Source: an uncultured bacterium
GTDB taxonomy: Bacteria; Omnitrophota; Omnitrophia; Omnitrophales; JACQLI01
Length of the DNA stretch: 64,000 nt
NCBI GenBank assembly: GCA_964372875.1
Contig: CAYJTB010000002.1
Span: forward strand, 21,576-85,575
Direction: 5' to 3'
Shown: positions 5,348 through 22,980 of the stretch, piece after piece
How positions within the stretch are numbered: position 1 is the stretch's first letter
Layout of the letters: the number at the start of each line of letters is the position of its first letter
Position numbers and translations under genes: made by a program
The notes under the pieces: model-generated
What the model was told of the DNA's origin: nothing
The model's database searches: none
Seen by the model: the letters and a program-made list of their open reading frames with translations, nothing else

Positions 5348-6068
5348 CCCCGCAGGCGGACCCGCGAATTACCTTTTAGGGATTCTTAGAGCGCTCAAAG
5401 CCGATTTTTTGCATCTGGGCCCCTCCGAAATTCTGGCGCCTCATATTCTTTCACGCCGTTTCGACACAATCATTCTAAGCGATTTCTCAGCCCAAAACGT
5501 CCCACAAACGTCCCAAAAAATCATTCGCGAACAACATTTATCCGGCGCCGGATTAATCATGGTGGGAGGCTGGGGATCTTTCTCAGGGCCTTTCGGCGGG
5601 TGGCGGGGAAGCGCGATTGAAAAAATCCTTCCGGTGTCTTGTCTGGCACGAGATGACCGCACCAATTTTCCGGGCGGCGCTTTGATGACTCTGAAGGCAA
5701 AACACAGCATGTTTAATAAAATCGATTTCAAAAATCCGCCTGTCATCTGTGGTCTTAATGAAATCCGCCCGAAAAAAGAGGCCCTCACGCTTTTAAGCGC
5801 AAGAAAAGTTCAAATAAAAAAAGGCGGCTGCAATCCTCAAATTGCTCTGGATCAAAAAGAATACCCCTTGCTTGTGATTGGAAGAAATCAACACCAAAGA
5901 GTCGCCGCTCTCACCACAGACCTTGCCCCGCATTGGTGCGGAGGATTAGTTGATTGGGGAGGGAAGCGTTTGAAGCTTCGCGTAAATTCCAAAATCCAAA
6001 TTGAAGTAGGAGACTTTTACGTGAAGTTTGTTTCCGGTCTCATCCGTTGGCTCGCCAAACAAGAATAG
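5322..6068 (+). CDS. Class-I glutamine-amidotransferase-like (DUF1355/ThuA-like) protein
   Basis: MKILYAGDSPAGGPANYLL...LIMVGGWGSF. Overlaps the tatC stop. Family call is tentative. Confidence 0.35.
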   Translation: MKILYAGDSPAGGPANYLLGILRALKADFLHLGPSEILAPHILSRRFDTIILSDFSAQNVPQTSQKIIREQHLSGAGLIMVGGWGSFSGPFGGWRGSAIEKILPVSCLARDDRTNFPGGALMTLKAKHSMFNKIDFKNPPVICGLNEIRPKKEALTLLSARKVQIKKGGCNPQIALDQKEYPLLVIGRNQHQRVAALTTDLAPHWCGGLVDWGGKRLKLRVNSKIQIEVGDFYVKFVSGLIRWLAKQE

Positions 6069-6104: not shown

Positions 6105-9100
6105 TTAAGCAGCGATGGCCATCTGTTTTGCGGCCTCGAAGACCTTCCAGATCGCTTCCACTAAGGCAAAAGCCGAGCTCTTTATTTTGAAACGGGATCC
6201 GTTGATCTCAAAGAGATCTTGTTTTTGTGAAAGGCTCAGAACATCTTGAGCAAGTTTGGTGGAAGCACCTGACATAATGACAAGATAAGCAGCGCGTTTA
6301 GCTTCTGGAATAGAATAGGTCACAGAACGCAGACTTTTTCCAAAGTCTTCGCCAAATTCAGCGATCTTATCAGACAGGTTTTCCGGAAGGCTCAAGACAA
6401 AATAACGTCCAAGAAACGTTTGAAATTTAACCTCACCTTCAGGAAAATATTGCTTGTGCGCTTCATGGGCTGCCTTCAAGACTTCCTTTCGTAAACCGAT
6501 CCAATCGGGCGCGTAAACAAGATTTGCCCGGCCATCGGGGACAAGCTTTGTAAGTTCATCCATTTGTTTTGTGAGTTCGTCCTGATCTTGCTGATTCTTC
6601 ACCGCCTCCGGGGTTACAAAAATACTCACTCTGGCTTTCTTATTTTCGACGAGGGGAACAATAAGGCCTCGAAGCTCTGAAGTGCTTGGAACATAATCTA
6701 AAGTCGCCACATGCACTCCGGGTTGATTCGCTCCTTTTGCCAACAATGTAAAAATGCGAGCGATTTCACTATTAAATTGAATACTCTCTGTTTCCGGTCT
6801 CTCACTTTGTTTGGAAAATTCAATTAAAGCTGGAAGAATTTCTTCATCGTCAGGACTAAAGACCCACCGCATTTGTTTGGCGATTTCCAAGATAGCCCGA
6901 ACGACCGTCTTTGGATCCATCTTAGGGTTAGAATAGGGACGATGTTTTACAGCCCTTTCCATCAAAGAGAGGGTGAGAACCTCAGTTTTGGGGGAAATTC
7001 TCATTTCCGAGCGGCCGGCTTCAGTGTCCGGCGGAGTCGGAGGCACTTGAGGAGGCTGGCGGAATAAATTCTCAAGGCTCGCCCGGTCCTGCTCTTTCAA
7101 AAGGTGAAGCGCAAAAATTCGCCCGGCAAGGGTTTCAATAAGTTCTTCCATGGCCGGCGTGAGCGGTTGCGATTTCACCCGAAACATCTTTATGTATTCA
7201 GAAGGAAGCGGAACATTATTCGCAATATCTGCAAAAGATTTGTTATCCGTTAATACAGCCACCGGGTTTTCCTTTTCATACTTACCTCCCTGAACATTTT
7301 GGAAGTAAAACTTTCGGGCGTCTTCAGGGGTGAGTTCACCTTTCAAACGGAGAAGCTTTTCAATGAGCTCAGTTCGTGGCTCAAGCGTCGTAAGAAAATC
7401 AATGAGATCTTTATAATTCCTGTCAAACCTTGCCAGCGGTTCGGTAAGACTCCAAACCTCGCTGCGCATTTCGGAGCGGTTCGGATTTTCGCCTTGACCG
7501 GGAAGGCCCTTCTCCAAAAGGTTGCGGATAAACAGAGCCGTGCTAAAAAGAAAATGTTTGGCTTCTTCATTAGGAACATCTTCCTTTTGGCTCGCTGTAT
7601 TTAAGGCGCTTGCGTAGCGCATGAGTTCGCTGCTAAAACGCGCAAGAACGCTTTGAGGATCTTTGTATTCCGGATTCGTTTCGGGATGAGTGAAGGAATA
7701 GGTTAGAGTCGATTCCCCCCCCGCCGTTTTTTCGGATTCGATCAAAGTGACTTCATTCTTATCGGGTTCAACCGTTAAATTCCAGTAAAACCCGTGCCCT
7801 TCTTCCAATTCCACGCTGTTGGACACCACGATTTTTCCGCCTTCCCCTTTATCAGACGGCAGTTGTTGCAATTGGATTTTATATTCAACGCCGTTCGCCG
7901 CCGTGAGTTGGGTTTCGTAAATATTTTTGGTATGAGTAGGCGCAATTAAAGGTATGCGCTCTGAGGTAGAAATGACTTTATGATAATAGGGAGAGGAAAT
8001 CAGTTGAGAGGGGATAGATTGGGCTTCGCCCTTAGAAGAATACAGGAGCGTCTCGGCGGGTTTTTCCGGGTTAGGTCCCAATACAAGGTAAAGCTCCGTT
8101 TCCAATTGAGTCTTGGCACCCTCGGGCACGGTGATCTCAACCTGCCCCTCTTCCGTGACCTTTTGAAGCGTCTCGACTAAATGTAAAATTCGGCCCACCA
8201 AGACATCGCCTTTTTCCGCTTTAAACAAAATGTCCTGAGGCCGAACCTCTTTTTCTGAAAAGGGCGACAGTTTGACTCGGTTGAGAAGCATTTTGACTTC
8301 ATAGCCAAAGCCGCTGGATTGTTCAGAAATGCTTTTGATTAACTCTTCACGATGGGCCAGCTCCCACAATTTGGAGAGGTATTGCTTTAATTCTTCATCA
8401 CTGGCCCGCGCCTCGGAACGGAAGTTGCGGGAGTCTGTGTGAGGATCATACATAGGTTCAAGGGCCCGACGGATGGGGTCAAAGACGAAAAAATGTTCCA
8501 GATGAAGACTGGGTTTATGGATCCCGGCATAGGCGTCCTTAACACGTGACGGTGAAAATACTATTTCCACGGCGCCAGCTATCGCGAGGATATTGCTGTA
8601 ATCTCCCGATCGAAACCAACGAATCAGCTCGTCTTTCGTGGGAGGAAATTCGAGCCTCCGATCTTCCAACGTCTTTTTCCATTCGTCAGGAAGATTTTCT
8701 TTCTTATACTGTGAAGCCATTTTTGAAAGAGTCTCCAAATCTCTTTCGTCAATCAGCCCATCCAAAACAGGATCGGCGATAAAACGTGGCGGTTTTCTCG
8801 GTTCGCGAATCTCGTAGAGCCTCCATTTCATACCGGTCGGTGAAAACTCGAGCACAAACCGCTTTAATTGTTCTTCCAGGCCCGCTTGATTTTCCGGAGA
8901 ATCTTCAGCCTGAAAAAGAAGATGATCGGGAGTCCACCGGTTTACCTTGTAGCCGCCGCCTCTAAAATATTCGGTTTCTGTTGCCTTGAGGTAGTCAAAC
9001 GCCGCCATTTTTTCTACGGGAAGCAGCTCCTTGATCCGATTTTGGAGGGCTTTAATAGCATCGCCGACGCTCATTCCTTTGCGCGCTTCGGGATCATCTG

Positions 9101-12100
9101 ATTCAAACAAGCCCGCGGGCGTAAGAAGCTTAGGAGTAGAATTCGCGACTTTGGCGGCGAAGTTGCCTTGGGGGTCAACTAATTTTTTCCTAAGAAGCGG
9201 TTGAGAAAAATCACCGGCATTCCTCAACCCTTCGATCGGGAGTTTGAGATCAAGATAGATGGGATAACGGGTCGAATCCACGATAAGAAACCGGTTCTGC
9301 CAGCCTAAGTTTGCGCGTTCTTTTAAGGAAACGATGCTGAAATTGTTAGAAATTGCCTGCTCCATGGTCGTTGTGGTGTGTCCGCCGATGGCGAAATCCA
9401 CTCCGTTTTTTTCTACATAATCAGCAATCGCACGTTCGGAGTAATCGCGGCTCCAAAGCGTTTCGAGAAGAGGGTTTGTTTGGCGCTGTTCTTTCTGCGA
9501 TCTTGGAATTCGCGTAAGGTCTCTTACTTCGGGCGTGAAGAAATTAATAACGTCTTTCAAGCTTTGAATGTTGTGAACGGCTCCCGCATGAGCTAACAGA
9601 ATTTTAGTCCGGTCATCTTCAGAATGAATTTTTAAAACAACGGGAGAGGCCTGTATGTAGTTCTTAAAACCTTCGAGGGCTTCTTCGGAAAATGGTTTTC
9701 CTTCCCCGAACACCTCTTTTTCAAAAAATGAATTTTGGGTTGTAAGACGCTTTTGTTGCCAGATAGCAAGCCCTCCCATTTCGTGAGGGAGATGAGCATA
9801 GTCATGATTGCCGGGAAGATAATGCACCTGAACAGGGAAACGGCGCTTCAACGCCAAAATTTGCAGCAAGGTTGTGAAGGAATCCGCATAAGCCTTGGGA
9901 TCTTCGAAGAGTTCGCTTCGATGAGTATGAATCGCATCGCCCGTAATCACAAGATGAGCGTTTTTATCTTTGCGGAGCGCCCGTTCGATATCGACTTCTT
10001 TTAAAATTGCCGCCAGATTTTCATAAGCGCCGTGAAGATCGCCGATCACAATCAGCCGGTCCGCGTTTTTAATTTCTACCAAAGCGCCCGGTTTTCCGTG
10101 ATCATCGAGCCACCGGACGCTGCGCTCCCGATTATTGATCTCTTCTCCCTGAGAGTGAAGCGGGTACGCATCAAGTGCCGTCACCGCCCGCGCGAAAAAT
10201 TTTTCCGCACCCTCTTTCATAAAGAATTCGTACATTTGTTCTTTATCCAAAACCGCGTCCTGCTTCGCTCGCACCTCGGCCCTCGCCCGCTCAGGCGAGG
10301 ACGGAGGAGTACCCGAATCCAACCGATTTGGGCGCACCTCGGCTCTTGCACCGGATTCTCTGAATTTTTCGGTTTCTAAAGTGAGGGATTGACCGTTCCC
10401 AGTTTGTGGATAATGACGGGCGGATTCAAGGACATTGATTTTCGAAGGACGGCTTACGATTCCGAAGTGCGTCTCGAGTTCTCCAAGGAGGCGGAAGATA
10501 ACTTCGTCTTCTTGAATGCTTGGGCTATAAGATCTCTGCTTCATGAAGTTCAGAGCTCGTTTGATCGTTCGAGTGTCGTAATTCTGAACGACGTATTGAA
10601 CGACCTCATTATCTTTACTGCGCACCTCGGCCCTCGCCCGCTCAGGCGAGGACGGAGGAGTACCCGAATCCAACCGATTCGGGTGCACCTCGGACCTTCG
10701 ACTCGGCTCCGTCCCGAGCGTAGTCGAGGGGCTCAGGTCAAAAACACTCGGCCCTGAGCGAAGCCCTTCGGACTGAGTCGAACGGGCCTCGGAGCGGGAT
10801 TGTAAGCTGGCGGGAATGGGATCGAGATCCGTTTGCTTAAGTTCTTGAATTTCTAAAGATTCATGATTCGGTGTAATTTCTCGCTCCCAAAGGATCAGAA
10901 CGCCCGGGGCTTTTAATCTTTCCCAAATCATTCTCGCTCTTTCCTTGATGGTCTCCGAAGTCCAGTGTTCTCCCATCCAGGTGTTTCTCCAAAAGAAGAT
11001 ATGAGAAGGCGCAATAAATTCTGGATGAGCGGGAAGATCAAACAGATTTCCGTAAATTCCTTTGAATTCAACATCGATTCGGGAACGGTCCGTTTTGGGT
11101 AATTCAAGAAGCCGGTCTTTGATTACTTGTTCAAGCTCCAGAAGCGCTTCTACACTTTGGTTTACCACCTGTAAAACGAGATGGATTTTTTGTCCCTTGC
11201 CTTTTAGGGTTTTTAGTTCAGCGATCACCGTTTCGACGGTCTCCATCAATTCATCCCCTTGCTTACCCGGTCCCAACGTCGTCACGACCATCCCACGCGT
11301 ACCCGCTTCCACTAAAGAATGAACGGCCGAACGCAAAGCTCTTTGCTCGTTCTCTTCTAGAGGAAAATTCGAATCCGAGATGGCTTGTCCTTGATCCAAT
11401 CCTGTTTGAACCAAACGACGAATCTCTTGTTCGTCTAAGTCGGTGTAAGGCAGGAAAAAATCTACGATTTTACCCGGCTTCCATAATTCAGGCCGGAAAG
11501 TCCCGCGCCGCATTTCCAATTGCTGCGCCACAATTTTTTCCAAACGTTCTCTTTTCGTGTCACTCCGCACCTCGGCCCTCGCCCGCTCAGGCGAGGACGG
11601 AGGAGTACCCGAATCCAACCGATTCGGGTGCACCTCGGACCTTCGACGCGGCTCCGTCCCGAGCGTAGTCGAGGGGCTCAGGTCAAAAACACTCGGCCCT
11701 AAGCGAAGCCCTTTGGGCTGAGTCGAACGGGCCTCGGAGCGGGGGGCCGTTATTTTATCTTTAATAATATTATGGTTGACTTTTAATAAATCATTTGTTA
11801 CCCTTTCCCCGTTCTGAAATGCTAAGGTATGATGAAAGGAGAACAAGCCTGAGGTGAAAATATTCTGGACTCCAAAACGGTTGGAGGCGATGTCAAAAAC
11901 TTCTTTAACGCTGTTCCAGGCATTTTTGGTGGCAGCAGTAGTTGGTGGCGTGTTAGGCAAAATTCCGAATGCCTGGCTCAAGTTGTTTTTTCTGTCGGCG
12001 ACGTTTAGCTTTTTGGTATTAGGAATTATAGTGGCCGATTGGCCTTTAATGAAAAAAGAGGAGGCCTGAAATGTTTGCTCTGATCTTTGCTTTGGTTCTG

Positions 12101-15100
12101 ATATTTGTAATTGCTGCTTGGATTGGAATCGAGCAGTACCGCCTGAAACACCGGCGTCATTAATCGTTTCCGCATTTCGCATCTCGGCCCTCGCCCGCTC
12201 AGGCGAGGACGGAGGAGTACCCGAATCCAACCGATTCGGGCGCACCTCGGAACGGGGGCCTTGGTTATCTTCAAACCCGCCGGCGATCTTCAAATCCTGA
12301 AGGCGATCATCAAGCCGCTCCACGGCGTAGTCAAGCCCCTGGAGAAGGTGGGCTTCCTTTTCCGGATCATTTTGCATGGAATTTTTTAAATCGGCGATCA
12401 GGGATTTGGCTTCACCGGCTTCACGGAAAATGGTTTCGACAATCTCCGGACTCACTCTCTGACCCGTATTATTGTGATGCTTCAACGCCTCCATCAGATT
12501 TCCGCGCAGCTTAATCAAGCTTTGATCCAGCAAACGGCGCAATTCCTCAGGCGTCTCGCCTCCTCCCTCAAGGGGCTCCGGAGTCGGTTGCGCCCGCACC
12601 TCAGCGCGGGGCAGCGCTAGAAACGTAGTTTTATTTAAATCAAATTTTTCTTGACTATAAAATATATCCTTGTTAAACTCTCCTTTAATGAAAGATCGAA
12701 CACGACGGCTTGAGTCTGGTAAAATGCTACTGGACGTCTCAAAGTATTTCTCGACAGTTACGGGCATCGGAAGCCTGGCGGGCGGTTCCGTGAATTGGCG
12801 GTTAGCCGCTGTAGGTCTATTCATGGCGTTCGTATCTTGGTTTGTCGGATTTGTGACAATTCCTAAAGATGAGGAAACCAAATGACTAATTTTGAAATCA
12901 CGGCCATTGGCATCGGGATATTCGCCCTGGCGGTGGGCCTGACGGTCTACCTCACCGAGCGCTGGGACTCGATGCGCCATAACTCCCGTAAGCCCAAACA
13001 CGCCTAATTTAACATCCCCGCTGTTTTTCTCACTCCGCACCTCGGCTCTCGCCCGCTCAGGCGAGGACGGAGGAGTCTCCGGCCGGTCAGCCGGAGGCAC
13101 CTCGGCTCTCGAGTCGGCGCGGGTGCGTTCCTGCCAACTCAAAATGATTTTTTGGATTTCTGGATGAAGTCGAAACGCCGCTGATCGAAACATTTCGAGC
13201 GGAGGCGCCTCCGACAATTGTAATTTTGAGTCGATTCCCTCTTTCCCCTGAGACTCTATCGATCTTTGGAACTCCGATAAAAAATAAAATGCGTAAATCC
13301 GCTGAGTAAGATTGTCTAACCCCGAGGCCCAGGCCCGAAAGTTGCCAAGGCCGAGCTGTATTTCCTTTTCAAGAATCCGGATAGGATCGCCCTGCGCCTT
13401 TAAAATTTCCTCATACCTTCCTTCGAACAATGCCCTTAGGCCCTGTGCGTCGCGCCCTTTCGCGGCACGTAAACTCGATTGAAAACGCTTGGGAAGAAAC
13501 AATCCTTTTTCCTTCCCCCACTTGATGGCTTCTTCCTGTCGCGATGTTTCATAAAATTCATTTGCCATAAGGATGGCAACAAAGCGTAGAATTTGTTCGT
13601 CATATTTTGATAAGAACCGGTTTACCGAGTCCCGGGGCCAAAAAGGTTGCGGGTTTCCCTCAAAAAGGGAAGCGGCCTCATTTCGGATGATGGGAATTCC
13701 TTCCTTCAATAGTTCCTTGTGTTCCGGATCACTCCACTTGAAAGCGGCACCCCCCCAAGCTTCACGGATGATGTCGGAGGCAAAGCCTAGAAAAAAATAA
13801 TCCAGAGAATCAAGATTTTGAATGGCATTCCATCTCCAATAAAGATGCGCATCATTGATGCGTATCGTCATGGTTCCTGATGGGTCATCTTTTTTCTTTG
13901 CGTAAATCATTCCTTGTCTTGCCAGTTCAGCAGGCAGCGGCTCCGCTTTCTTGACCGCTTCCTTATAGTTCTTGAGAACCTCGGGATGCGGGTATCCTTG
14001 TTCAATCAACCAATCAATCGTTGCCGAAATGGCTTGTTTGATACTTTCCAGATTGGGATCAACTTTGAAACGCAATTGTTTTGGCAATTTTGCCGGTGTG
14101 CTTTGGGTGGATGAAATACCTTTGAGGTCTCCGACGATTTTTACAATTTTTTCGAGTTGATCATTCGTCAGTCCTAGAATTCCCTTTTGATTTTTTATTT
14201 TTTCTTCAAGGATTCGCCGCAGCTCCTGCACGGTCAATGTTTCACTTCTGTAAAGAAGCCTCAAGCGATCTTCGTTTAAACGGTCATGAAATTTTTGTGG
14301 AATACCGCTCTTGGCTTTGATGTTATCCCTCAGCATCTCGAGCTTCCTTTTTTCGTCCGTTCCGTGAGAATCTGCCCGCATCTCGGCCCTCGCCCGCTCA
14401 GGCGAGGGCGGAGGAGTACCCGAATCCAACCGATTCGGGTGCACCTCGGACCTTCGACTCGGCTCCGTCCCGAGCGTAGTCGAGGGGCTCAGGTCAAAAA
14501 CACTCGGCCCTGAGCGAAGCCCTTCGGACTGAGTCGAACGGGCCTCGGAGCGTGAAGTTTGATTTTTATTATAATATTTATTGATATAAAATGAAACTCC
14601 TGCTAGACTCCCCAGCGCATAAGGAGCTCTATTCATGAAAGAAATCTTTTCACCCGATCGGCGGGAAGTTGCAGCACGAACGTTATTCGATACCTGGAAG
14701 CTATCCGTCCCCGCCGCTGTAGCAGGAGGGTTCTTCCTCCAATTCAATATTTTTGTTAAAATCGCATTTGTGGTAGGGCTTTTAGCCGGATTTGCCTTGG
14801 CATTTTTTATGTTCCCTCCGGAATCAAGGGGAAAAGGAGGTTGAGATGTTAGTTGCTGTGAGTATTTTATTGGTGTTGGTTCCCGCCGTCCTTCTTGCAG
14901 GAATGTATTTAGAACAGTACCTGAGGAAGCGTCGTCACCTACATTAGAAAGGAGCGGCTGAGATGGACGTTGCTTTGATTTCGATATTTGGGATCCTTGT
15001 AGTGATAGGGACGTGGTTTGGGATTGAGAAGTACCAGGAACGCCGGAAGAGACACCTTCATTAAACCTTCCGGTATTCTTCTCACTCCGCGCCTCGGAGC

Positions 15101-18100
15101 GGTTGGCACCTCGTGCTAGTTGGTCGGCTTTTTGAATTTTCTTTTTCAAGAGATTAAGGTTAGGAATCGCCTTTTCACTCGCGATCTTGTCTAAAGTTTC
15201 AAGAGCAAGTTTAGAAAAGCCATCTTCGGCAAGTTTTTCAAATGCGTCTTGACTTTGTGCCTGTTCTATTAAACCCTTCTTAAATTGTTCAACGATGTAA
15301 ATTGAAAAATCTTCAACCCCTTTTCTACGAAAGTTCGGAATCAACAAAGATTTCTTCGTCTCATCAAGAACGAAAAAATTGGAACTCCATTTCCTAATAA
15401 ATCGGATATGTGACGAATTGATAAATCTTCCGGTTTGTGGGTCTTTTCGGAAAAGATCTATCAAATATTCTTTCAATTTTGCGCCATTCTTCTCTTCTAT
15501 TATCGCCTCAAACAAAGCGTGATTTTTCCCAGCATCCTTCTCCGGATCCCCTAAATAACTAGCATCTTCAAACTCTTTTTGTAACGATGGAAAAATTTTC
15601 TTGAGCAGTAGCAGCTCTTCCTCAAACCTCTTCTTCAATCCTTTGGATTGGATAATGGGCAATGGAAGCTTCCGAAATGCTTCTATTTTTTCATCCCCCA
15701 TGCCGTAGGGATTTATATCTATCGAATTCCGAATAGCGTGAAGAGCCTGAACATTTTCGGGAATATCTAAATTCAATTTCTGAATCGCTTCCACAAAAGC
15801 AACGTCTTTAGTTCTTTCGCTCGCCCGCACCTCGGCCCTCGCCCGCTCAGGCGAGGACGGAGGAGTACCCGAATCCAACCGATTCGGGTGCACCTCGGAC
15901 CCTCGACGATCAGAAGTTAGAAGTCGGGAGTCAGATATCAGATTTGCCTCCGAGCGGGAAAACACTATTTCCTTATTCGTCAAAAATATATTGACTTTTA
16001 AGGAATATGGATATACACTCATTGCCGCAAAAGGAGAGTAAGTTTTGTTTACACCGCTTCGAAGATTTGAATATGGTAGGATGCTGTTGGCATTGATCCC
16101 CGTGCTTGTGGGCTCGGCAGTGGTAAGCCGTGTGTTTACAGAAGCACCGCCGTTCTTTAGAATAGGGGTGGTATTGCTGATATTAGTCATAAGCGTGCTT
16201 GGCTTTATTATTTTACCCGCATCAATGGAAACTAAAGAAGGGAGGCGTTGAAATGATAGATACCGCGACGGCAGCTCTTCTGGGTGTTTTTTTAATGTTG
16301 ATTGTGATGATGTCTTGGTTTGGGATCGAGAAATATCTGGAGCGGCGGAAGAAGACTCATTGATAACACCCGGCAGCTCAAAATCAGCGAGAATTTCTTT
16401 TTGAGTCGTCGGAGCGGAGCGGGCGTCTAGGACAGGCGTCTCAACCGTGATGGTTCCAAACGGGATCACGATCGGCGCGCCGTAGATATTACGAAGTGGT
16501 TTGTTTTCCACATTGTCCCACACGATAGCTTTCTCGCCCGTGCGGCTTAAAATAAGAACAAATCTTCGGTCAGAGGCGTAACTACTTTGATTGATAGCAC
16601 GAATAATTCGTGACGCCGCCATCCTCTCATCTTTTGCTGTCTCAATAATTGCCTGAAGAACACTTTTAATTTCTTGAATAATGATTTTGGGCCGGACGTT
16701 TTGATCACGCGTTGTCATCCGCATCCGGATGGCATTGGAGATTTCTTTGATCGCAGGCTCGAGGTAGTTTACATCAAACGAGGTTTTCTTTTCGCCGAGA
16801 AGAGACGAGATGTAATCTTGAGACGAAGTTTTTTCTGTGATGCGCGGAGAGAGGATCGTGTAAGAAATTCCTTTTTTTCGGAAGGCGCGCGAGAGTCCGT
16901 CGGCGTGGAAACCGCCGGTGATGAGGACGGTGACGCCGTTCTCCCTCATCTTGCTCTTCTCCTCCCGAGGGGGAGAAGAGACAGTTGAGGGGGGATTTAA
17001 TATTTTTTCCACCATCACATCTTCACGTTTTTTGGCAAGTTGGTAGAAACGCATTGCCTGTTGGTAAAGATATTCAATCGCCCGGATGTTCGCAGGAATG
17101 ATTTGAGACGGACCCAAGTTTGTTTTGTCATGAAGAGATTGCATATCAATAAGGTAACGGACAAGCGGGCGGTCGATCGTTTCAGCTTGCTGGATTTTGA
17201 CGTAATCTTTGGGCGTAAGTTCCAAGTCAAAGAGCCGCTCGAAAAGTCCGCCGCGCTGGGCAAGCCCGACCAGTTTTAATTCTTCCGGTTGGGCAGCAAC
17301 GGCTTGGATTAGATTTTGAAAGAGCCGCTCGATTTCACCAAAAAGCCGTTCCGCATCGAGTTCGCTTTGTAAAACAGCCGCCTCCAAATAATGTGTGAAG
17401 TAGGGATAGTGATCAAAAGAAAATCCCTTATCGACTGTGGAGACTACAAGGTATTCCGCCAAATAACGCGGCAGATCATTTTTATTAAAACCAGGATCGT
17501 AGACCATTCCCGTTTGGTAAGGGGAGAACGAGAGGTTTTCAAAGGCGTGGACAAGAACGGGATGAACCCCGATTTCTTTTAAGTCAGCGATTAATTTTTG
17601 ACGGTCCGTTTGAATTCGTTCAGGATCAAGGCCCGACTCCGCCTCCTGAAGCCTCAAGAGCCTGATCATCTGCGGCCAGTCTTTTTGGCTCTCAAAGTTT
17701 CTAAGATCCACGCCCAGAATTTGTTTGGTTCTTCGCTCGAGTTCAAAGGCATAAGAGAGAAGTTCCATCTGGCCGGCCTCAAAAGATTCATTCGTTCGGA
17801 GCAGTGTTCTCGTATGAGGCGTTAGCAGATGAGTTCCAAGCCGGTCGAGTTCGCCGTCCAGTCCTTTGGTGAAAGTATTCGTTTCATTTTGCCGGCTCAT
17901 TACAATTTGAAAACTCTCTAGGTTATCCCGGTAAAGATCAGGATCTTCAATTCCGTAGGCGGGGATTTTTTCCTGTGATTCAATGAGGAAAAGTTCCGCT
18001 CCCGTCAGTTCGCCCTTTTCAACAAGCTTTTGGGCAACCTCCACGTTCAACTGGTTTTGATCAAAAAATTTGAAGTAGTCGGGGTTGAGTTTTTCGCCGG

Positions 18101-18431
18101 CGCCTTCAATGAATAAAGCGCGAACGCCGTATTTCTCGTCCAGAAATTTTAGAAGGGCAAAAATCTTTTTCTGTGTCTCGGCGTGTGCGTGAACCGATTG
18201 GATATGAATGAGAGGAATATTTTCTGTTTTTGTGTCGGGAAGAAATGCTTCTTTAATCGAAGCAAGCTCCTGGGGAATTCCGAGGGGCATCAAAGACAAG
18301 GGAAGATTTTCTATGCCGCCTTCGGCCTTCGCGGGTGGAACGAGGATGGACGATGCAATGACACACATCGCGACCAAGAGAGATATAAACTTTTTATAAG
18401 TCTTCATTAATGTCATAAATCTAATTTTCAA
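6105..18431 (-). CDS. Giant 4108-aa secreted multidomain protein. N-terminal TraB/GumN(Tiki)-like domain, at least five unknown middle domains, C-terminal calcineurin-like metallophosphatase. Seven in-frame copies of a near-identical repeat linker
   Basis: Stop-free for 12,327 nt. Signal peptide MKTYKKFISLLVAMCVIASSILVPPAKA. HIQSVHAH...ITGGFHADGL (TraB/GumN-like). IVIGDLHG...ITGDAIHTHRS...LPGNHDYAH (metallophosphatase motifs I-III). Repeats encode RSEARSTQSEGLRSGPSVFDLSPSTTLGTEPSRRSEVHPNRLDSGTPPSSPERARAEVR. Confidence 0.7.
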   Translation of the reverse strand: MKIRFMTLMKTYKKFISLLVAMCVIASSILVPPAKAEGGIENLPLSLMPLGIPQELASIKEAFLPDTKTENIPLIHIQSVHAHAETQKKIFALLKFLDEKYGVRALFIEGAGEKLNPDYFKFFDQNQLNVEVAQKLVEKGELTGAELFLIESQEKIPAYGIEDPDLYRDNLESFQIVMSRQNETNTFTKGLDGELDRLGTHLLTPHTRTLLRTNESFEAGQMELLSYAFELERRTKQILGVDLRNFESQKDWPQMIRLLRLQEAESGLDPERIQTDRQKLIADLKEIGVHPVLVHAFENLSFSPYQTGMVYDPGFNKNDLPRYLAEYLVVSTVDKGFSFDHYPYFTHYLEAAVLQSELDAERLFGEIERLFQNLIQAVAAQPEELKLVGLAQRGGLFERLFDLELTPKDYVKIQQAETIDRPLVRYLIDMQSLHDKTNLGPSQIIPANIRAIEYLYQQAMRFYQLAKKREDVMVEKILNPPSTVSSPPREEKSKMRENGVTVLITGGFHADGLSRAFRKKGISYTILSPRITEKTSSQDYISSLLGEKKTSFDVNYLEPAIKEISNAIRMRMTTRDQNVRPKIIIQEIKSVLQAIIETAKDERMAASRIIRAINQSSYASDRRFVLILSRTGEKAIVWDNVENKPLRNIYGAPIVIPFGTITVETPVLDARSAPTTQKEILADFELPGVINESSSAAPDISRSQTKTSSQSTLKKHPEELPSRYLSFQRLPSLVSIDAGKIIKPSTLMTNISNTTPILKNGGASVNTRLTTAEPTSTGINANSILPYSNLRSGVNKTYSPFAAMSVYPYSLKVNIFLTNKEIVFSRSEANLISDSRLLTSDRRGSEVHPNRLDSGTPPSSPERARAEVRASERTKDVAFVEAIQKLNLDIPENVQALHAIRNSIDINPYGMGDEKIEAFRKLPLPIIQSKGLKKRFEEELLLLKKIFPSLQKEFEDASYLGDPEKDAGKNHALFEAIIEEKNGAKLKEYLIDLFRKDPQTGRFINSSHIRFIRKWSSNFFVLDETKKSLLIPNFRRKGVEDFSIYIVEQFKKGLIEQAQSQDAFEKLAEDGFSKLALETLDKIASEKAIPNLNLLKKKIQKADQLARGANRSEARSEKNTGRFNEGVSSGVPGTSQSQTTSLSLQGSQISKSKQRPSQPLLSNVGDDASSGTVLNTFLQEGRREPTPIKYSQQLTSQPPFPLDSGGNIKNAKANPAKSPTTNAILTKILNWRKNPPATAAGTDSFQVSNNVRAATSRRSGEKISFMNRAPYALGSLAGVSFYINKYYNKNQTSRSEARSTQSEGLRSGPSVFDLSPSTTLGTEPSRRSEVHPNRLDSGTPPPSPERARAEMRADSHGTDEKRKLEMLRDNIKAKSGIPQKFHDRLNEDRLRLLYRSETLTVQELRRILEEKIKNQKGILGLTNDQLEKIVKIVGDLKGISSTQSTPAKLPKQLRFKVDPNLESIKQAISATIDWLIEQGYPHPEVLKNYKEAVKKAEPLPAELARQGMIYAKKKDDPSGTMTIRINDAHLYWRWNAIQNLDSLDYFFLGFASDIIREAWGGAAFKWSDPEHKELLKEGIPIIRNEAASLFEGNPQPFWPRDSVNRFLSKYDEQILRFVAILMANEFYETSRQEEAIKWGKEKGLFLPKRFQSSLRAAKGRDAQGLRALFEGRYEEILKAQGDPIRILEKEIQLGLGNFRAWASGLDNLTQRIYAFYFLSEFQRSIESQGKEGIDSKLQLSEAPPLEMFRSAAFRLHPEIQKIILSWQERTRADSRAEVPPADRPETPPSSPERARAEVRSEKNSGDVKLGVFGLTGVMAHRVPALGEVDRQAHRQGEYPDANGRDFKISHLVSSSLGIVTNPTNQDTNAMNRPTAANRQFTEPPARLPMPVTVEKYFETSSSILPDSSRRVRSFIKGEFNKDIFYSQEKFDLNKTTFLALPRAEVRAQPTPEPLEGGGETPEELRRLLDQSLIKLRGNLMEALKHHNNTGQRVSPEIVETIFREAGEAKSLIADLKNSMQNDPEKEAHLLQGLDYAVERLDDRLQDLKIAGGFEDNQGPRSEVRPNRLDSGTPPSSPERARAEMRNAETINDAGVSGGTARFQSKQQLQISEPKQRSEQTFQASSFFIKGQSATIIPNTKKLNVADRKNNLSQAFGILPNTPPTTAATKNAWNSVKEVFDIASNRFGVQNIFTSGLFSFHHTLAFQNGERVTNDLLKVNHNIIKDKITAPRSEARSTQPKGLRLGPSVFDLSPSTTLGTEPRRRSEVHPNRLDSGTPPSSPERARAEVRSDTKRERLEKIVAQQLEMRRGTFRPELWKPGKIVDFFLPYTDLDEQEIRRLVQTGLDQGQAISDSNFPLEENEQRALRSAVHSLVEAGTRGMVVTTLGPGKQGDELMETVETVIAELKTLKGKGQKIHLVLQVVNQSVEALLELEQVIKDRLLELPKTDRSRIDVEFKGIYGNLFDLPAHPEFIAPSHIFFWRNTWMGEHWTSETIKERARMIWERLKAPGVLILWEREITPNHESLEIQELKQTDLDPIPASLQSRSEARSTQSEGLRSGPSVFDLSPSTTLGTEPSRRSEVHPNRLDSGTPPSSPERARAEVRSKDNEVVQYVVQNYDTRTIKRALNFMKQRSYSPSIQEDEVIFRLLGELETHFGIVSRPSKINVLESARHYPQTGNGQSLTLETEKFRESGARAEVRPNRLDSGTPPSSPERARAEVRAKQDAVLDKEQMYEFFMKEGAEKFFARAVTALDAYPLHSQGEEINNRERSVRWLDDHGKPGALVEIKNADRLIVIGDLHGAYENLAAILKEVDIERALRKDKNAHLVITGDAIHTHRSELFEDPKAYADSFTTLLQILALKRRFPVQVHYLPGNHDYAHLPHEMGGLAIWQQKRLTTQNSFFEKEVFGEGKPFSEEALEGFKNYIQASPVVLKIHSEDDRTKILLAHAGAVHNIQSLKDVINFFTPEVRDLTRIPRSQKEQRQTNPLLETLWSRDYSERAIADYVEKNGVDFAIGGHTTTTMEQAISNNFSIVSLKERANLGWQNRFLIVDSTRYPIYLDLKLPIEGLRNAGDFSQPLLRKKLVDPQGNFAAKVANSTPKLLTPAGLFESDDPEARKGMSVGDAIKALQNRIKELLPVEKMAAFDYLKATETEYFRGGGYKVNRWTPDHLLFQAEDSPENQAGLEEQLKRFVLEFSPTGMKWRLYEIREPRKPPRFIADPVLDGLIDERDLETLSKMASQYKKENLPDEWKKTLEDRRLEFPPTKDELIRWFRSGDYSNILAIAGAVEIVFSPSRVKDAYAGIHKPSLHLEHFFVFDPIRRALEPMYDPHTDSRNFRSEARASDEELKQYLSKLWELAHREELIKSISEQSSGFGYEVKMLLNRVKLSPFSEKEVRPQDILFKAEKGDVLVGRILHLVETLQKVTEEGQVEITVPEGAKTQLETELYLVLGPNPEKPAETLLYSSKGEAQSIPSQLISSPYYHKVISTSERIPLIAPTHTKNIYETQLTAANGVEYKIQLQQLPSDKGEGGKIVVSNSVELEEGHGFYWNLTVEPDKNEVTLIESEKTAGGESTLTYSFTHPETNPEYKDPQSVLARFSSELMRYASALNTASQKEDVPNEEAKHFLFSTALFIRNLLEKGLPGQGENPNRSEMRSEVWSLTEPLARFDRNYKDLIDFLTTLEPRTELIEKLLRLKGELTPEDARKFYFQNVQGGKYEKENPVAVLTDNKSFADIANNVPLPSEYIKMFRVKSQPLTPAMEELIETLAGRIFALHLLKEQDRASLENLFRQPPQVPPTPPDTEAGRSEMRISPKTEVLTLSLMERAVKHRPYSNPKMDPKTVVRAILEIAKQMRWVFSPDDEEILPALIEFSKQSERPETESIQFNSEIARIFTLLAKGANQPGVHVATLDYVPSTSELRGLIVPLVENKKARVSIFVTPEAVKNQQDQDELTKQMDELTKLVPDGRANLVYAPDWIGLRKEVLKAAHEAHKQYFPEGEVKFQTFLGRYFVLSLPENLSDKIAEFGEDFGKSLRSVTYSIPEAKRAAYLVIMSGASTKLAQDVLSLSQKQDLFEINGSRFKIKSSAFALVEAIWKVFEAAKQMAIAA
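9450..10110 (-). other. Calcineurin-like metallophosphoesterase domain of the giant protein, approximate bounds
   Basis: GDLHG at about 10031-10045 (- strand). GDxxxxH and GNHD motifs in order, GNHDYAH at about 9795-9815. Confidence 0.6.
10268..10350. repeat. Repeat copy R1 (short form), in-frame inside the giant CDS
   Basis: + strand core cacctcggccctcgcccgctcaggcgaggacggaggagtacccgaatccaaccgatt. Contains hairpins cctcgcc-cgctca-ggcgagg and cccgaatc-caacc-gattcggg. Confidence 0.85.
10621..10798. repeat. Repeat copy R2 (long form, about 178 bp)
   Basis: Core plus tail ...cgggtgcacctcggaccttcgactcggctccgtcccgagcgtagtcgaggggctcaggtcaaaaacactcggccctgagcgaagcccttcggactgagtcgaacgggcctcggagcg. 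Near-identical to R3 and R6. Confidence 0.85.
11565..11743. repeat. Repeat copy R3 (long form), immediately upstream (+ strand sense) of cassette 1
   Basis: About 98% identical to R2/R6 by eye. Directly abuts the AT-rich promoter region of cassette 1. Confidence 0.85.
11854..12069 (+). CDS. Cassette 1 gene A: small (71 aa) two-helix membrane protein, antisense-nested in the giant CDS
   Basis: GTG start with SD aaggag 12 nt upstream. Charged N-terminus, two hydrophobic helices (LVAAVVGGVLG / FFLSATFSFLVLGIIVA), charged C-terminus. The TGA stop sits immediately upstream of the ATG of gene B. Confidence 0.6.
   Translation: MKIFWTPKRLEAMSKTSLTLFQAFLVAAVVGGVLGKIPNAWLKLFFLSATFSFLVLGIIVADWPLMKKEEA
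12071..12163 (+). CDS. Cassette 1 gene B: 30-aa single-helix peptide with a W-I-G-I-E-Q-Y + basic tail
   Basis: MFALIFALVLIFVIAAWIGIEQYRLKHRRH. Translationally coupled (tgaaATG). Paralogous to the peptides at 14963 and 16253. Confidence 0.55.
   Translation: MFALIFALVLIFVIAAWIGIEQYRLKHRRH
12176..12256. repeat. Repeat copy R4 (short form), immediately downstream of cassette 1
   Basis: cgcatctcggccctcgcccgctcaggcgaggacggaggagtacccgaatccaaccgattcgggcgcacctcgg. Confidence 0.85.
12670..12885 (+). CDS. Cassette 2 gene A: small two-helix membrane protein; the true start may be the internal ATG near 12687
   Basis: Paralog of 11854/14635/16045 (…TGIGSLAGGSVNWRLAAVGLFMAFVSWFVGFV…KDEETK). The upstream TTGACT-N17-TAAACT promoter-like motif overlaps the annotated start, so a shorter or leaderless form is likely. 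Confidence 0.5.
   Translation: MLNSPLMKDRTRRLESGKMLLDVSKYFSTVTGIGSLAGGSVNWRLAAVGLFMAFVSWFVGFVTIPKDEETK
12882..13007 (+). CDS. Cassette 2 gene B: 41-aa single-helix peptide with a basic tail (diverged paralog)
   Basis: MTNFEITAIGIGIFALAVGLTVYLTERWDSMRHNSRKPKHA. ATGA start/stop overlap with gene A. Confidence 0.45.
   Translation: MTNFEITAIGIGIFALAVGLTVYLTERWDSMRHNSRKPKHA
13034..13120. repeat. Repeat copy R5 (diverged variant), downstream of cassette 2
   Basis: ccgcacctcggctctcgcccgctcaggcgaggacggaggagtctccggccggtcagccggaggcacctcgg. First hairpin intact, second replaced. Confidence 0.7.
14376..14552. repeat. Repeat copy R6 (long form), immediately upstream of cassette 3
   Basis: Near-identical to R2 and R3 over about 175 bp. 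Confidence 0.85.
14635..14844 (+). CDS. Cassette 3 gene A: small (69 aa) two-helix membrane protein
   Basis: SD aaggag 8 nt upstream of ATG. TTGATA-N17-TAGACT promoter-like motif at 14581-14609. …AAVAGGFFLQFNIFVKIAFVVGLLAGFALAFFMF…. Confidence 0.6.
   Translation: MKEIFSPDRREVAARTLFDTWKLSVPAAVAGGFFLQFNIFVKIAFVVGLLAGFALAFFMFPPESRGKGG
14846..14947 (+). CDS. Cassette 3 gene B1: 33-aa single-helix peptide
   Basis: MLVAVSILLVLVPAVLLAGMYLEQYLRKRRHLH. Coupled (tgagATG). Confidence 0.5.
   Translation: MLVAVSILLVLVPAVLLAGMYLEQYLRKRRHLH
14963..15064 (+). CDS. Cassette 3 gene B2: 33-aa single-helix peptide, tandem duplicate
   Basis: MDVALISIFGILVVIGTWFGIEKYQERRKRHLH. Own SD aaaggag 8 nt upstream. Confidence 0.5.
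   Translation: MDVALISIFGILVVIGTWFGIEKYQERRKRHLH
15825..15910. repeat. Repeat copy R7 (short form), upstream of cassette 4
   Basis: ccgcacctcggccctcgcccgctcaggcgaggacggaggagtacccgaatccaaccgattcgggtgcacctcggaccctcgacg. Confidence 0.85.
15991..16019 (+). promoter_or_regulatory. Sigma70-like promoter of cassette 4 (TTGACT-N17-TACACT)
   Basis: Seen directly in the sequence. Equivalent motifs precede cassettes 1 (TTGACT 11776), 2 (TTGACT 12650) and 3 (TTGATA 14581). Confidence 0.45.
16045..16251 (+). CDS. Cassette 4 gene A: small (68 aa) two-helix membrane protein
   Basis: TTG start with SD aaaggagag. TTGACT-N17-TACACT at 15991-16019. …LLALIPVLVGSAVVSRVF…IGVVLLILVISVLGFIIL…. Confidence 0.6.
   Translation: MFTPLRRFEYGRMLLALIPVLVGSAVVSRVFTEAPPFFRIGVVLLILVISVLGFIILPASMETKEGRR
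16253..16363 (+). CDS. Cassette 4 gene B: 36-aa single-helix peptide with a WFGIEKY + basic tail
   Basis: MIDTATAALLGVFLMLIVMMSWFGIEKYLERRKKTH. SD gaagggagg. Coupled (tgaaATG). Confidence 0.55.
   Translation: MIDTATAALLGVFLMLIVMMSWFGIEKYLERRKKTH
16880..18250 (-). other. TraB/GumN/PrgY (Tiki-like) domain of the giant protein, approximate bounds
   Basis: N-proximal LIHIQSVHAH and distal VLITGGFHADGL resemble the paired GxxH/HxxH motifs of the TraB/Tiki family. Called from memory. Confidence 0.4.
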
Positions 18432-18507
18432 TCTATGTTAGGTGATTGTTCCTCCTAGAGATGGAAGCTCCTAAAATATACCCCGTGAACAGGCAGGCGT
18501 CAAACGA

Positions 18508-18536
18508 AGCGCCCGCTTGACGGGATTTAAATAAAT
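18508..18536 (+). promoter_or_regulatory. Sigma70-like promoter for the cysC operon (TTGACG-N17-TATAGT, with TGn extended -10)
   Basis: ttgacg ggatttaaataaatgtg tatagt, 68 nt upstream of the cysC GTG start, which is preceded by aaggaggag. Lies in the divergent region shared with the giant gene. Confidence 0.5.
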
Positions 18537-18603
18537 GTGTATAGTCTTAAGTCTTTTTATAACAAGGAGATAAGCTATTAAAACCGAAGGAGGAGTTAAA
18601 GAA

Positions 18604-19158
18604 GTGGGCAATAAGAAATATACCCTGCAAAGGGGGGTTACGATTTGGTTCACCGGTCTTCCTAGTTCAGGCAAATCCACGGTCGCCCGGATCTTGGAAC
18701 GCAATTTTCGCCAATGGGGTCTCAAATGTGAACTTTTAGATGGCGATGTGATCCGTACCAACCTCAGCAAAGGTCTGGGATTTTCCCGTGAAGACCGTGA
18801 CGCCAACATTAAACGCATCGGTTTTGTGGCGCACCTTTTGACCCGTAATGACGTCATTGCGATGGGTGCTGCGATTTCACCTTTCCGCGAAGCGCGGGAT
18901 TACAATCGCAAACTCATCGGCAATTTCGTCGAAGTGTTTGTGAAATGCTCTGTTGATGAATGTGAGAAACGCGATGTGAAGGGACTTTTTAAGAAAGCCC
19001 GCGCGGGAGAAATCAAAGGTTTTACCGGCGTGGATGATCCTTACGAAGAGCCGCTTCACCCGGAACTTATCTTAGAGACGGAAAAACAATCGGCTGAAGA
19101 GTCGGCGGATATCGTCGTGAAAAAATTGGAAGAGTTAGGATATTTGAAGGCTCAATGA
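18604..19158 (+). CDS. cysC: Adenylylsulfate kinase
   Basis: Walker A GLPSSGKSTVARILE. APS-kinase length and motifs (DGDVIR, FVSPF-like AISPFR). Confidence 0.85.
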   Translation: MGNKKYTLQRGVTIWFTGLPSSGKSTVARILERNFRQWGLKCELLDGDVIRTNLSKGLGFSREDRDANIKRIGFVAHLLTRNDVIAMGAAISPFREARDYNRKLIGNFVEVFVKCSVDECEKRDVKGLFKKARAGEIKGFTGVDDPYEEPLHPELILETEKQSAEESADIVVKKLEELGYLKAQ

Positions 19159-20000
19159 ATCAGGTCGATCTTCACATGCACACCACGCATTCCGACGGCA
19201 CTTTTCTGCCCCGGGATCTTGTGAAGCACGCGAAGGAGCGGGGACTCAAATGCATTTCCGTGACCGATCACGATACCATGTCGAGTTATGAGGAATGCCT
19301 TGATGAGTCAAAAAAGTTAGGGATCGAACTGATTCCAGGAATTGAAATCAGTGCCGATTTTGAGCCGGGGACCCTTCATATTCTTGGGTATTTTCTGGAT
19401 CCCGAGCAGCCGGAGCTAAAGAAAACGCTCCTCGATATTCAAAAAGCACGGCTTGAACGAAATCCTCAGATCATCAAGAAATTAAATAACATCGGAATTG
19501 ATATCACGCTGGAAGAAGTGATTGCTGAATCGGGCGGAAAACAAGTCGGGCGTCCGCATTTCGCGCGGGTACTTTTGAAAAGAGGCTTCATCAAAAACAT
19601 GGAAGAGGCCTTCCGAAAATATTTGGCCAAAGGAAAACCGGGGTACGTGGATAAACGCAGACTTTCTTCTAAAGACGCCATCCAGAGTATTCATCAAGCA
19701 GGCGGGATTGCATCCATCGCGCACCCTAAACAGATGAAACTCCAAGAGCCCGAACTTTCTAAAGAATTCGAGCGGCTCGTGGATGAGGGATTGGGTGGTA
19801 TCGAGGCGTACAATAGTTGCCAAAGCGCTGCCGAAGCCAAGATCTACAAGCAAATCGCAAAACGTTTTAATCTCATCGTTACAGGCGGTAGTGATTTTCA
19901 TGGCGCCAACAAACCCGACGTGCAGTTAGGAAGTTTTGGCGCAGACCTGGACTACAAAGTGATTGAAGACATGAAAAAGTTTGTATGGGTGAAGAAATGA
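19155..20000 (+). CDS. PHP-family metal-dependent phosphoesterase; candidate 3'-phosphoadenosine-5'-phosphate (pAp) phosphatase
   Basis: VDLHMHTTHSDGT...SVTDHD, PHP histidine motifs. ATGA overlap with cysC. The pAp assignment rests on operon context only. Confidence 0.65.
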   Translation: MNQVDLHMHTTHSDGTFLPRDLVKHAKERGLKCISVTDHDTMSSYEECLDESKKLGIELIPGIEISADFEPGTLHILGYFLDPEQPELKKTLLDIQKARLERNPQIIKKLNNIGIDITLEEVIAESGGKQVGRPHFARVLLKRGFIKNMEEAFRKYLAKGKPGYVDKRRLSSKDAIQSIHQAGGIASIAHPKQMKLQEPELSKEFERLVDEGLGGIEAYNSCQSAAEAKIYKQIAKRFNLIVTGGSDFHGANKPDVQLGSFGADLDYKVIEDMKKFVWVKK

Positions 20001-20024
20001 CCGTCATGACGAATTTGAGGAGCA

Positions 20025-20804: not shown

Positions 20805-20828
20805 AATGAAGGAGAATGATTACATCTA

Positions 20829-22976: not shown

Positions 22977-22980
22977 AGCG

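Follow-up and report, generated by a model that had tools for sequence, protein, structure and literature searches.

Proteins that are made as one chain and cut by a protease residing in that chain are known from viral polyproteins and from the gingipains RgpA and Kgp of Porphyromonas, where the in-chain protease cuts short recurring sites (Arg/Lys in the gingipains) and frees the downstream domains. In MARTX proteins (multifunctional-autoprocessing repeats-in-toxin), a conserved protease domain cuts the inter-module regions of the same protein and so frees unrelated effector modules, which vary from strain to strain, in the target cell (PMC6315884). Here, a giant gene on the minus strand of a 64-kb stretch of contig CAYJTB010000002.1 from an uncultured Omnitrophota bacterium (the whole stretch being referred to as the window) was analysed, the product of which might be an exported modular polyprotein processed by its own N-terminal domain of TIKI fold at a recurring pentapeptide, R-[SA]-E-[AVM]-R. 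Like the MARTX proteins, it is a single giant polypeptide with a conserved part, putatively for processing, and an array of unrelated, variable modules that this part would release. Unlike in MARTX proteins, the candidate protease is an N-terminal TIKI fold and not a C80 cysteine protease activated by inositol hexakisphosphate (InsP6), type I secretion is replaced by a Sec-type signal at the N-terminus, a defined pentapeptide marks the boundaries, and the cargo is metabolic or regulatory and not cytotoxic, with prokaryotes as the prospective hosts. In addition, glycine-rich repeat arms and RTX repeats were not found by Tandem Repeats Finder (TRF), the only repeats being the junction units, and a Pfam search of the giant protein gave no match to the C80 domain, Metallophos being the sole match. 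Having neither repeat arms nor a C80 domain nor a type I secretion layout, the giant protein would therefore work like a MARTX protein in the mechanism proposed below without being a member of that family. With viral and gingipain polyproteins it has no sequence or fold relation, and its cargo and scale are far larger and more variable.

Within the TIKI superfamily, RRSP and Tiki are proven peptidases, RRSP being a site-specific endopeptidase with a 2His/2Glu centre plus an Arg (PMC6254334). However, RRSP is a cargo module that cuts a host protein, whereas the TIKI domain considered here leads its protein and would cut its own chain; it also carries a helical insert of ~300 residues, and a HMMER profile of the domain found nothing among the PDB sequences, so that similarity to RRSP or Tiki is undetectable at this level. 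Giant proteins of Omnitrophota, a recognised puzzle, have already been catalogued under the class name 'multi-enzyme metabolic cluster' (10.64898/2026.06.07.730766; West-Roberts 2023, 10.1101/2023.11.21.568195). Going by the names of the relatives, they come from the same phylum as the present family; they frequently have a signal peptide, and the same kinds of Pfam domains are found in both (starch synthase, GT1, PGM, response regulators, methyltransferases). Those giants have at least 10,000–30,000 aa, and cleavage has been suggested for them in general terms, with C39 and S8 peptidases being proposed (10.64898/2026.06.07.730766; 10.1101/2023.11.21.568195); the published work raises the question of a single functional chain versus cleavage and notes that cleavage points have yet to be recognised (10.1101/2023.11.21.568195). 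Neither these two studies nor the other papers found by full-text search mention a TIKI-like domain conserved at the N-terminus, a motif at module boundaries or an organisation in cassettes.

The gene is a single open frame at 6105-18431, with 4,108 codons and thus 12.3 kb without a stop codon. Its first possible start codon is TTG at 18431, but since the orthologs begin with MxxLKxYxK, the ATG at 18416 is likely to be the true start; the resulting protein of 4,103 aa (P0001, the query protein) is identical to the NCBI call. The sole hydrophobic segment of P0001 comprises residues 7-31, with lysines before it and AKA/EG after it, and no other transmembrane-like segment was found in the whole protein by hydrophobicity. 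By eye and by hydrophobicity it is read as a Sec-type signal peptide or signal anchor, in agreement with the Sec signal peptide that a sequence-only reading of this DNA had proposed, and a signal-like N-terminus is general across the family. A Cys is kept within this segment in P0001-P0007 and P0010 (..VAMC.., ..VAVC.., ..VLAC..); it does not form a canonical lipobox, lipidation at this residue being conceivable.

In a structure model, the first ~550 residues, the proposed hydrolase, adopt an alpha/beta fold with a central parallel beta-sheet and flanking helices. Fold comparison gave figures of 8.9 for ChaN, 8.4 for 2rad ('succinoglycan biosynthesis protein'), 8.3 for both HopBA1 and a TraB family protein, 7.8 for EreC, 6.8 for PMT and 6.5 for RRSP; ChaN, HopBA1, PMT and Bcr135/3B55 are listed as comparator structures of the TIKI superfamily (PMC6254334), and Bcr135/3B55 gave a weak Foldseek match to the domain and nothing stronger. 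A conserved His-Glu pair follows the first two core strands, with the spacing of 28 between His76 and Glu104 being the same as in RRSP (His3902-Glu3930) and Bcr135 (His85-Glu113), and the C-terminal half contains a conserved Arg (Arg464) and a second His within a GxxH motif (Gly501-Gly502-Phe-His504). Loss of the catalytic residues had been named beforehand as an outcome that would speak against a Tiki-like protease; instead, His76, Glu104, Arg464 and Gly501-Gly502-x-His504 are invariant in 58/58 relatives (core alignment A1, in which Tyr162 and Pro524 are invariant too), and His76, Glu104, Arg464 and the Gly501-Gly502-x-His504 motif sit at the C-terminal ends of core strands in the model. The domain of the query itself has no Pfam match, TraB (PF01963) is matched neither by the query at E ≤ 1 nor by the 29 relatives searched, weak matches to PF04187 ('Tiki superfamily, ChaN') were obtained for 7/29 of these (best E 1.6e-4), and a search with the domain as single protein against the genome contig collection gave no match. 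On its predicted structure the domain is placed in the TIKI / TraB / GumN / PrgY / erythromycin-esterase superfamily and not in the TraB family proper, so that the TraB/GumN/PrgY (Tiki-like) assignment made from the letters alone stands at the level of the superfamily but not at that of TraB.

With respect to its distribution, a search with the whole protein retrieved 57 relatives, all of them giants of 2.4-7.1 kaa and, where the source is named, almost all from metagenome-assembled genomes of Ca. Omnitrophota. The region that query and relatives have in common is confined to residues ~1-620. Run against 1.84 billion representative proteins, the family profile built from A1 collected 10,346 clusters (50% identity level) with E ≤ 1e-3, mostly Ca. 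Omnitrophota giants of 2-7 kaa, 7,325 of them reaching E ≤ 1e-30, and in this set the TIKI-like domain is always N-terminal, occupying residues ~30-600 of proteins of up to 7,248 aa. As P0018 was labelled Verrucomicrobiae and P0053 Elusimicrobiota by their submitters, the family may extend beyond Omnitrophota.

Downstream of this conserved domain, the pentapeptide is the recurring element. R-[SA]-E-[AVM]-R occurs 17 times in the giant protein as compared to 0.03 copies expected (maximum 1 in 500 shuffles), together with four near-copies (RSEAN, and RSEVH three times), and is absent from the other 46 genes of the window, which together encode 15,177 residues. Amongst 137 family members of at least 1,800 aa, R-[SAT]-E-x-R was found in 886 copies versus 37 expected (24-fold), 93/137 members having three or more; with a median position of residue 648, the first copy follows closely on the TIKI domain. 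An unbiased k-mer count likewise returned pieces of R-[SAT]-E-x-R as the most recurrent 4-mers in most members. Individual proteins prefer a particular fourth residue (RAEVR ×15, RSELR ×12, RSEQR ×10, RSETR ×10, RTELR ×14), and across the family the flanking residues are small or Pro on the upstream side of the motif and acidic on its downstream side. Minority lineages use GARL[AST] (20 and 13 copies), [AS]SLG (10) or [GA]ARMS (5) instead, and these alternative motifs also start right after the N-terminal domain. Four acidic residues of the helical insert, D237, E321, E352 and E399, are conserved only in R-x-E-x-R users and would suit the binding of a di-arginine site.

The recognisable cargo of the relatives consists of whole cytoplasm-type proteins, each within a single motif-bounded segment: P0031 has a glycogen synthase (GT5 + GT1) and CheR, P0034 an alpha-glucan phosphorylase and UDPGP, P0003 has APH and HEAT repeats, P0002 has CsrA and sigma-70 region 4, and P0033 has HPr, whose first residue is the fifth after the last Arg of the motif; kinases, PGM and response regulators are further types. 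None of 16 Pfam enzyme units is split by the motif, in contrast to ~5 expected (P = 0.0008). The boundary motif noticed in one protein thus proves to be a family-wide feature at the level of the peptide that respects enzyme boundaries. In turn, homology blocks between family members begin and end at motifs. For instance, module M1 of the query, including the motif on either side, aligns to a single motif-bounded segment of P0197 with 42% identity while the TIKI domains of the same pair are only 27% identical; cassettes thus move between distant members. Cargo turnover is also evident at one and the same locus: P0005, a positional ortholog of 6,005 aa at a syntenic locus on at least 10 contigs, shares with the query the neighbours on one side (APS kinase, PHP, PAPS reductase, ATP sulfurylase) and on the other (GATase1-like, TatC, ROK, glucoamylase), but within the protein itself the similarity is limited to the TIKI domain and some modules at the C-terminal end, all other cargo being different. 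Genomes can also carry near-tandem paralogs of the family. P0008 and P0015 (3,744 and 5,668 aa; ENA contig of 287,398 bp) are almost in tandem, with two small genes between them, one being PilZ-like, and both use ARSEAR-type motifs.

The codons at the motif sites were compared in five genes (the window open reading frame and the genes at L001 10001-28018, L003 6001-24693, L004 6001-23469 and L005 947-15781). Synonymous variation was seen at every motif position in these genes (CGN/AGR, four TCN codons, CTN/TTR), and the GAA/GAG ratio at motif sites tracks gene-wide usage in two of the five. Since across the family R1, E3 and R5 are fixed and positions 2 and 4 vary conservatively while the synonymous codons vary, selection acts on the peptide. 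An internal Shine-Dalgarno or re-initiation role of the GAGGTG within the motif was rejected, as the RSELR, RSEQR and GARLA variants lack GAGGTG and no consistent start codon follows. A 2A-like or intein-like self-cleaving module was rejected likewise, no such motifs or domains having been seen in the giant protein.

Following the N-terminal region, the query comprises about 13 unrelated modules, nine of them ordinary (M1-M9) and four of low complexity (LC1-LC4; 136-178 aa, 39-54% S/T/N/Q/G/P). The five globular modules described in the sequence-only reading are present as M1-M5 (241, 423, 113, 256 and 91 aa), but the four S/T/N/Q/G/P-rich modules had been missed, and the C-terminal region of ~1390 aa is not one unit, as three bare motifs divide it into M6-M9 (616, 309, 150 and 297 aa). 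The further claim that every domain boundary carries the motif or a repeat is correct except for the junction between the TIKI tail and LC1 (about aa 690), which is without motif.

The pentapeptide of this gene is often doubled around a repeated spacer of 16-44 residues, which corresponds to a DNA repeat present in seven copies of 61-182 nt, the best of which are 96-99% identical. Each unit is bracketed by two motif copies (RSE[AV][RH] ... RAE[VM]R) and holds two hairpins (RNA fold z-score -2.7); by our count, five further junctions are bare pentapeptides without a repeat unit. The Rickettsia palindromic elements are short, hairpin-forming, near-identical DNA units inserted in frame in coding regions as well. 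In contrast to these, however, all seven copies of the present repeat lie in one open reading frame, on one strand, in one frame and at module junctions, and no copy was found in the other 51 kb of the window. For this reason a randomly inserting miniature inverted-repeat transposable element was rejected. Relatives have bare pentapeptides and lack the unit, which also had no match in public genome and metagenome collections, and TRF found no protein-scale tandem arrays in the gene, just two short DNA arrays of ~2 copies. On these comparisons, the long repeat (84-182 nt) is a recent elaboration of the junctions peculiar to this gene, arisen either by intragenic conversion or from a small junction-targeted in-frame element, and the bare pentapeptide is the general signal. 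Every long repeat unit includes a weak hairpin of terminator type (10745-10765, 11695-11710, 14501-14521, minus strand), after which the coding strand reads GUGUUUUU (peptide ...GLRSGPSVFDL...); overall, such sites are no more numerous in the region than shuffling predicts.

The observations that the interpretation can draw on directly are the open reading frame, the fold with its conserved residues, the family, the enrichment and placement of the motif, the modularity of the cassettes, and the orthology with cargo turnover. From these we infer that the protein is exported and cleaved, which protease does so, and where the cargo goes. The reading that we favour, at slightly less than an even chance, is that the giant gene encodes an exported modular polyprotein self-processed by its TIKI domain. 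The Sec-type signal or signal anchor would carry the chain across the cytoplasmic membrane, and the first ~550 residues would fold as a hydrolase of the TIKI superfamily whose His-Glu / Arg / GxxH centre is intact, followed by the about 13 cargo modules spaced by the motif. Acting as a sequence-specific endopeptidase, the TIKI domain would cut at or beside the pentapeptides, freeing itself first, as the first site is just downstream, after which the modules would leave as separate proteins. These might act within another cell (a host or prey of the ultra-small Omnitrophota) and not in the medium. As the signal, the TIKI domain and the boundary peptide are the only constants of thousands of giants, a self-cutting endopeptidase is the most economical reading, and since an export signal is combined with cargo that needs ATP, UTP, phosphoenolpyruvate or RNA polymerase, the modules most plausibly act in another cell. 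A host-dependent or predatory way of life has been proposed for Omnitrophota (PMC10066038), and giant-protein transfer between bacteria has been reported in another symbiosis (10.64898/2026.03.19.712371). The idea of a self-processing polyprotein or modular effector, which the sequence-only reading had put forward, thus passed all its computational prerequisites and may be regarded as partly supported.

Several points weigh against self-processing. The case for cleavage is drawn from sequence and predicted fold, and a conserved fold with conserved residues is not proof of a peptidase because esterases (Ere) and members without catalytic function (ChaN, PMT C1-C2) also have the TIKI fold. Most of the family has Asp (HIQDAH) two residues before His76, at the position of RRSP Glu3900, with which the acidic residues of the 2His/2Glu set begin; the query clade has Ser there (HIQSVH). 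The signal peptide was assigned by eye and hydrophobicity, and the model has to assume Sec export of more than 4,000 residues of cytoplasm-type domains. Furthermore, 23/112 long members are without a recurrent motif, and the residues that differ between motif classes are confounded by phylogeny. Finally, codon choice varies much less at the motif sites than over the genes as a whole, the first Arg being encoded by CGC at 12/15 sites as against 21% gene-wide, with TCC favoured for Ser, TTG over-used for Leu, and CAG for Gln at 10/10 sites, and this even among members with less than 30% identical TIKI domains. A DNA-level process therefore also acts on the junctions; copying of junctions or a constraint at the nucleotide or translation level is what the uniformity points to, copying or conversion during cassette exchange being the simplest candidate.

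If the chain were not cut at all, it might be a giant scaffold, exported or tethered to the surface, with the pentapeptide as a hinge, docking or modification site and the TIKI domain acting, e.g., as an esterase on the target envelope or as a ligand binder. This is unlikely in our view, as a hinge needs no invariant R..E..R, and neither the wholesale swapping of the motif between lineages (GARL, SLG) with its position kept, nor the first copy directly after the conserved domain, nor the catalytic-type residues invariant in 58/58, nor a cargo of independent whole enzymes would be anticipated of a scaffold. Cleavage might also be brought about by a different protease, either one of the bacterium itself (housekeeping or periplasmic) or one that the host cell supplies, while the TIKI domain has another role. 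The motif evidence does not identify the protease, and the di-arginine character of the motif would suit many trypsin-like or OmpT-like enzymes. However, nothing but the TIKI domain is constant across more than 10,000 otherwise variable protein clusters, the motif class shifts with the TIKI-domain lineage, and no protease or secretion gene is conserved nearby across four gene contexts of family members, which makes a different protease quite unlikely.

Alternatively, the junction might be mainly a DNA-level structure, i.e., a recombination site or scar for the in-frame shuffling of cassettes whose peptide has no function of its own, and which in this gene has been elaborated by a small palindromic in-frame element similar to those of Rickettsia. 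The M1 cassette, which is better conserved than the TIKI domains and whose homology to P0197 stops at the motifs, the different cargo of the positional ortholog, the uniform codons, and the near-identical, hairpin-containing, motif-flanked repeat units that are absent from orthologs would all fit. But the fixation of R1, E3 and R5 with conservative change at positions 2 and 4 and varying synonymous codons, across members with less than 30% identical TIKI domains, the confinement of 7/7 units to one open reading frame, strand and frame with none in the other 51 kb, and the lack of matches to the repeat in public collections argue against it, and as the principal explanation we consider it very doubtful, although it can coexist with cleavage. 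That the gene is an artefact, either several genes joined through a mistake in sequencing or assembly or a pseudogene in decay, is hardly credible: the four low-complexity modules are unlike ordinary proteins and have almost no counterpart in relatives, but the frame is open over 12.3 kb, the same architecture recurs in thousands of independent assemblies, and the ortholog of 6,005 aa occupies a syntenic locus on at least 10 contigs.

What is new in comparison to the catalogued giants is a candidate protease (a TIKI-fold domain unseen by Pfam), a candidate cleavage site (R-x-E-x-R with its lineage variants) and a family of more than 10,000 clusters, which together make the question of one chain or cut directly testable in Omnitrophota giants. 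The recurrence of the layout across these clusters suggests a widespread, undescribed kind of self-cutting bacterial 'polyprotein'. If this is true, regular protease-led polyproteins with metabolic cargo would be a bacterial strategy, TIKI-family peptidases would extend to self-processing, and motif-based rules would become available for dividing 'dark' giant proteins into units for one-by-one prediction and annotation. A broader scenario, which we think has a rather poor chance of being right, is that Omnitrophota and some neighbours possess thousands of exported TIKI-led polyproteins with interchangeable cassettes of ordinary cytoplasmic enzymes and regulators, which enter a host or prey prokaryote and are cut at a pentapeptide that differs between lineages, the parasite thereby installing a custom metabolic and regulatory toolkit in its victim. 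Such a system would correspond, in cells, to the polyproteins and auxiliary metabolic genes of viruses, and would evolve as cassettes are exchanged in frame via the junction motif.

Table 1. Features of the giant gene and of its upstream region, in the order of transcription (positions in the window; aa, residues of P0001).
Feature	Position	Strand	Remarks
Promoter-like site TTGACG-17-TATATT	18475..18503	-	10/12; upstream of giant gene; consensus match alone
Giant coding sequence	6105..18416	-	4,103 aa + stop; open frame begins at TTG 18431; ATG matches orthologous N-termini
Signal-peptide-like or signal-anchor segment	18318..18416	-	MTLMKTYKK-FISLLVAMCVIASSILV-PPAKA/EG; hydrophobicity + family conservation
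TIKI/TraB/Ere-fold domain with large helical insert (predicted)	16692..18272	-	fold + conserved residues
Candidate catalytic His76	18189-18191	-	
Candidate catalytic Glu104	18105-18107	-	
Candidate catalytic Arg464	17025-17027	-	
Candidate catalytic His504	16905-16907	-	in GGFH
Tail of N-terminal region + LC1	15957..16691	-	tail aa 581-689, conserved with P0002; LC1 aa 690-825, nt 15957-16364
Junction 1, degenerate long unit	15825..15956	-	RSEAN...RGSEVHPNRLDSGTPPSSPERARAEVR
M1	15102..15824	-	241 aa; motif-bounded cassette also in P0197 (42% identity)
Bare motif RSEAR	15087..15101	-	
LC2	14553..15086	-	178 aa; 54% STNQGP; aa 1116-1293
Junction, long repeat unit	14376..14552	-	RSEAR...RSEVH...RAEMR
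M2	13107..14375	-	423 aa; homologous to segments of P0002 and P0007
Junction, partial repeat unit	13035..13106	-	ends RAEVR
LC3	12609..13034	-	142 aa; aa 1800-1941
Bare motif RAEVR	12594..12608	-	
M3	12255..12593	-	113 aa; helical
Junction, short repeat unit	12177..12254	-	RSEVR-PNRLDSGTPPSSPERA-RAEMR
LC4	11742..12176	-	145 aa; aa 2086-2230
Junction, long repeat unit	11565..11741	-	
M4	10797..11564	-	256 aa
Junction, long repeat unit	10620..10796	-	
M5	10347..10619	-	91 aa
Junction, short repeat unit	10269..10346	-	RAEVR-PNRLDSGTPPSSPERA-RAEVR
M6	8421..10268	-	616 aa; calcineurin-like metallophosphoesterase domain at 9375-10058
Bare motif RSEAR	8406..8420	-	
M7	7479..8405	-	309 aa; two halves match motif-bounded segments of P0005 and P0002
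Bare motif RSEMR	7464..7478	-	
M8	7014..7463	-	150 aa
Bare motif RSEMR	6999..7013	-	
M9, C-terminal	6108..6998	-	297 aa; kept at extreme C-terminus of P0002-P0005

When the cargo modules of the query were searched individually against Pfam, NCBIfam and the PDB sequences, Metallophos was the only match, being found in M6 (PF00149, aa 2792-3019, 61.7 bits at a cut-off of 21.5, E 3e-15) together with the metal-binding motifs GDLHG, GDAIH and GNHD. The complete calcineurin-like Ser/Thr phosphatase set claimed earlier is therefore present as a metallophosphoesterase, but the Ser/Thr type is over-specific: a PPP-type Ser/Thr phosphatase is not established because GDAIHTHRS replaces GDxVDRG (no DRG) and because M6 had no significant match among the PDB sequences and just sub-threshold matches to various phosphoesterases in NCBIfam. 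A role of M9 as pore, anchor or translocator was rejected, since its structure is a generic Rossmann-like alpha/beta fold. LC1-LC4 have no significant similarity to each other and almost no counterpart in relatives, P0005 holding one LC-like stretch (aa 948 onward) that starts with RAEVR-SEK...; as each of them stays open over 136-178 codons, they are presumably under selection. Two of the four begin with R-SEKN[TS]G, as does the P0005 segment from aa 948.

Regarding the neighbourhood, a 128-aa open reading frame without Pfam match (18471-18857, minus strand) lies directly upstream of the giant gene on the same strand; it may not be a real gene because the promoter-like site of the giant gene sits in its 3' end. 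Divergent from the giant gene is a sulfate-assimilation cluster (19155-24255, plus strand; PHP-domain protein, PAPS reductase, ATP sulfurylase and two PALP enzymes), which is syntenic with the P0005 locus, where an APS kinase also occurs. Immediately downstream and convergent are genes for TatC and a GATase1-like protein (4613-5347 and 5322-6068, plus strand), an arrangement that is kept at the P0005 locus (L001 27984-29476); the signal of the giant protein itself is without a twin-arginine motif. Elsewhere in the window, a pair of 40-nt direct repeats (61371-61410 and 61528-61567), 70% identical and 157 nt apart, is probably due to chance or to a short intragenic duplication.

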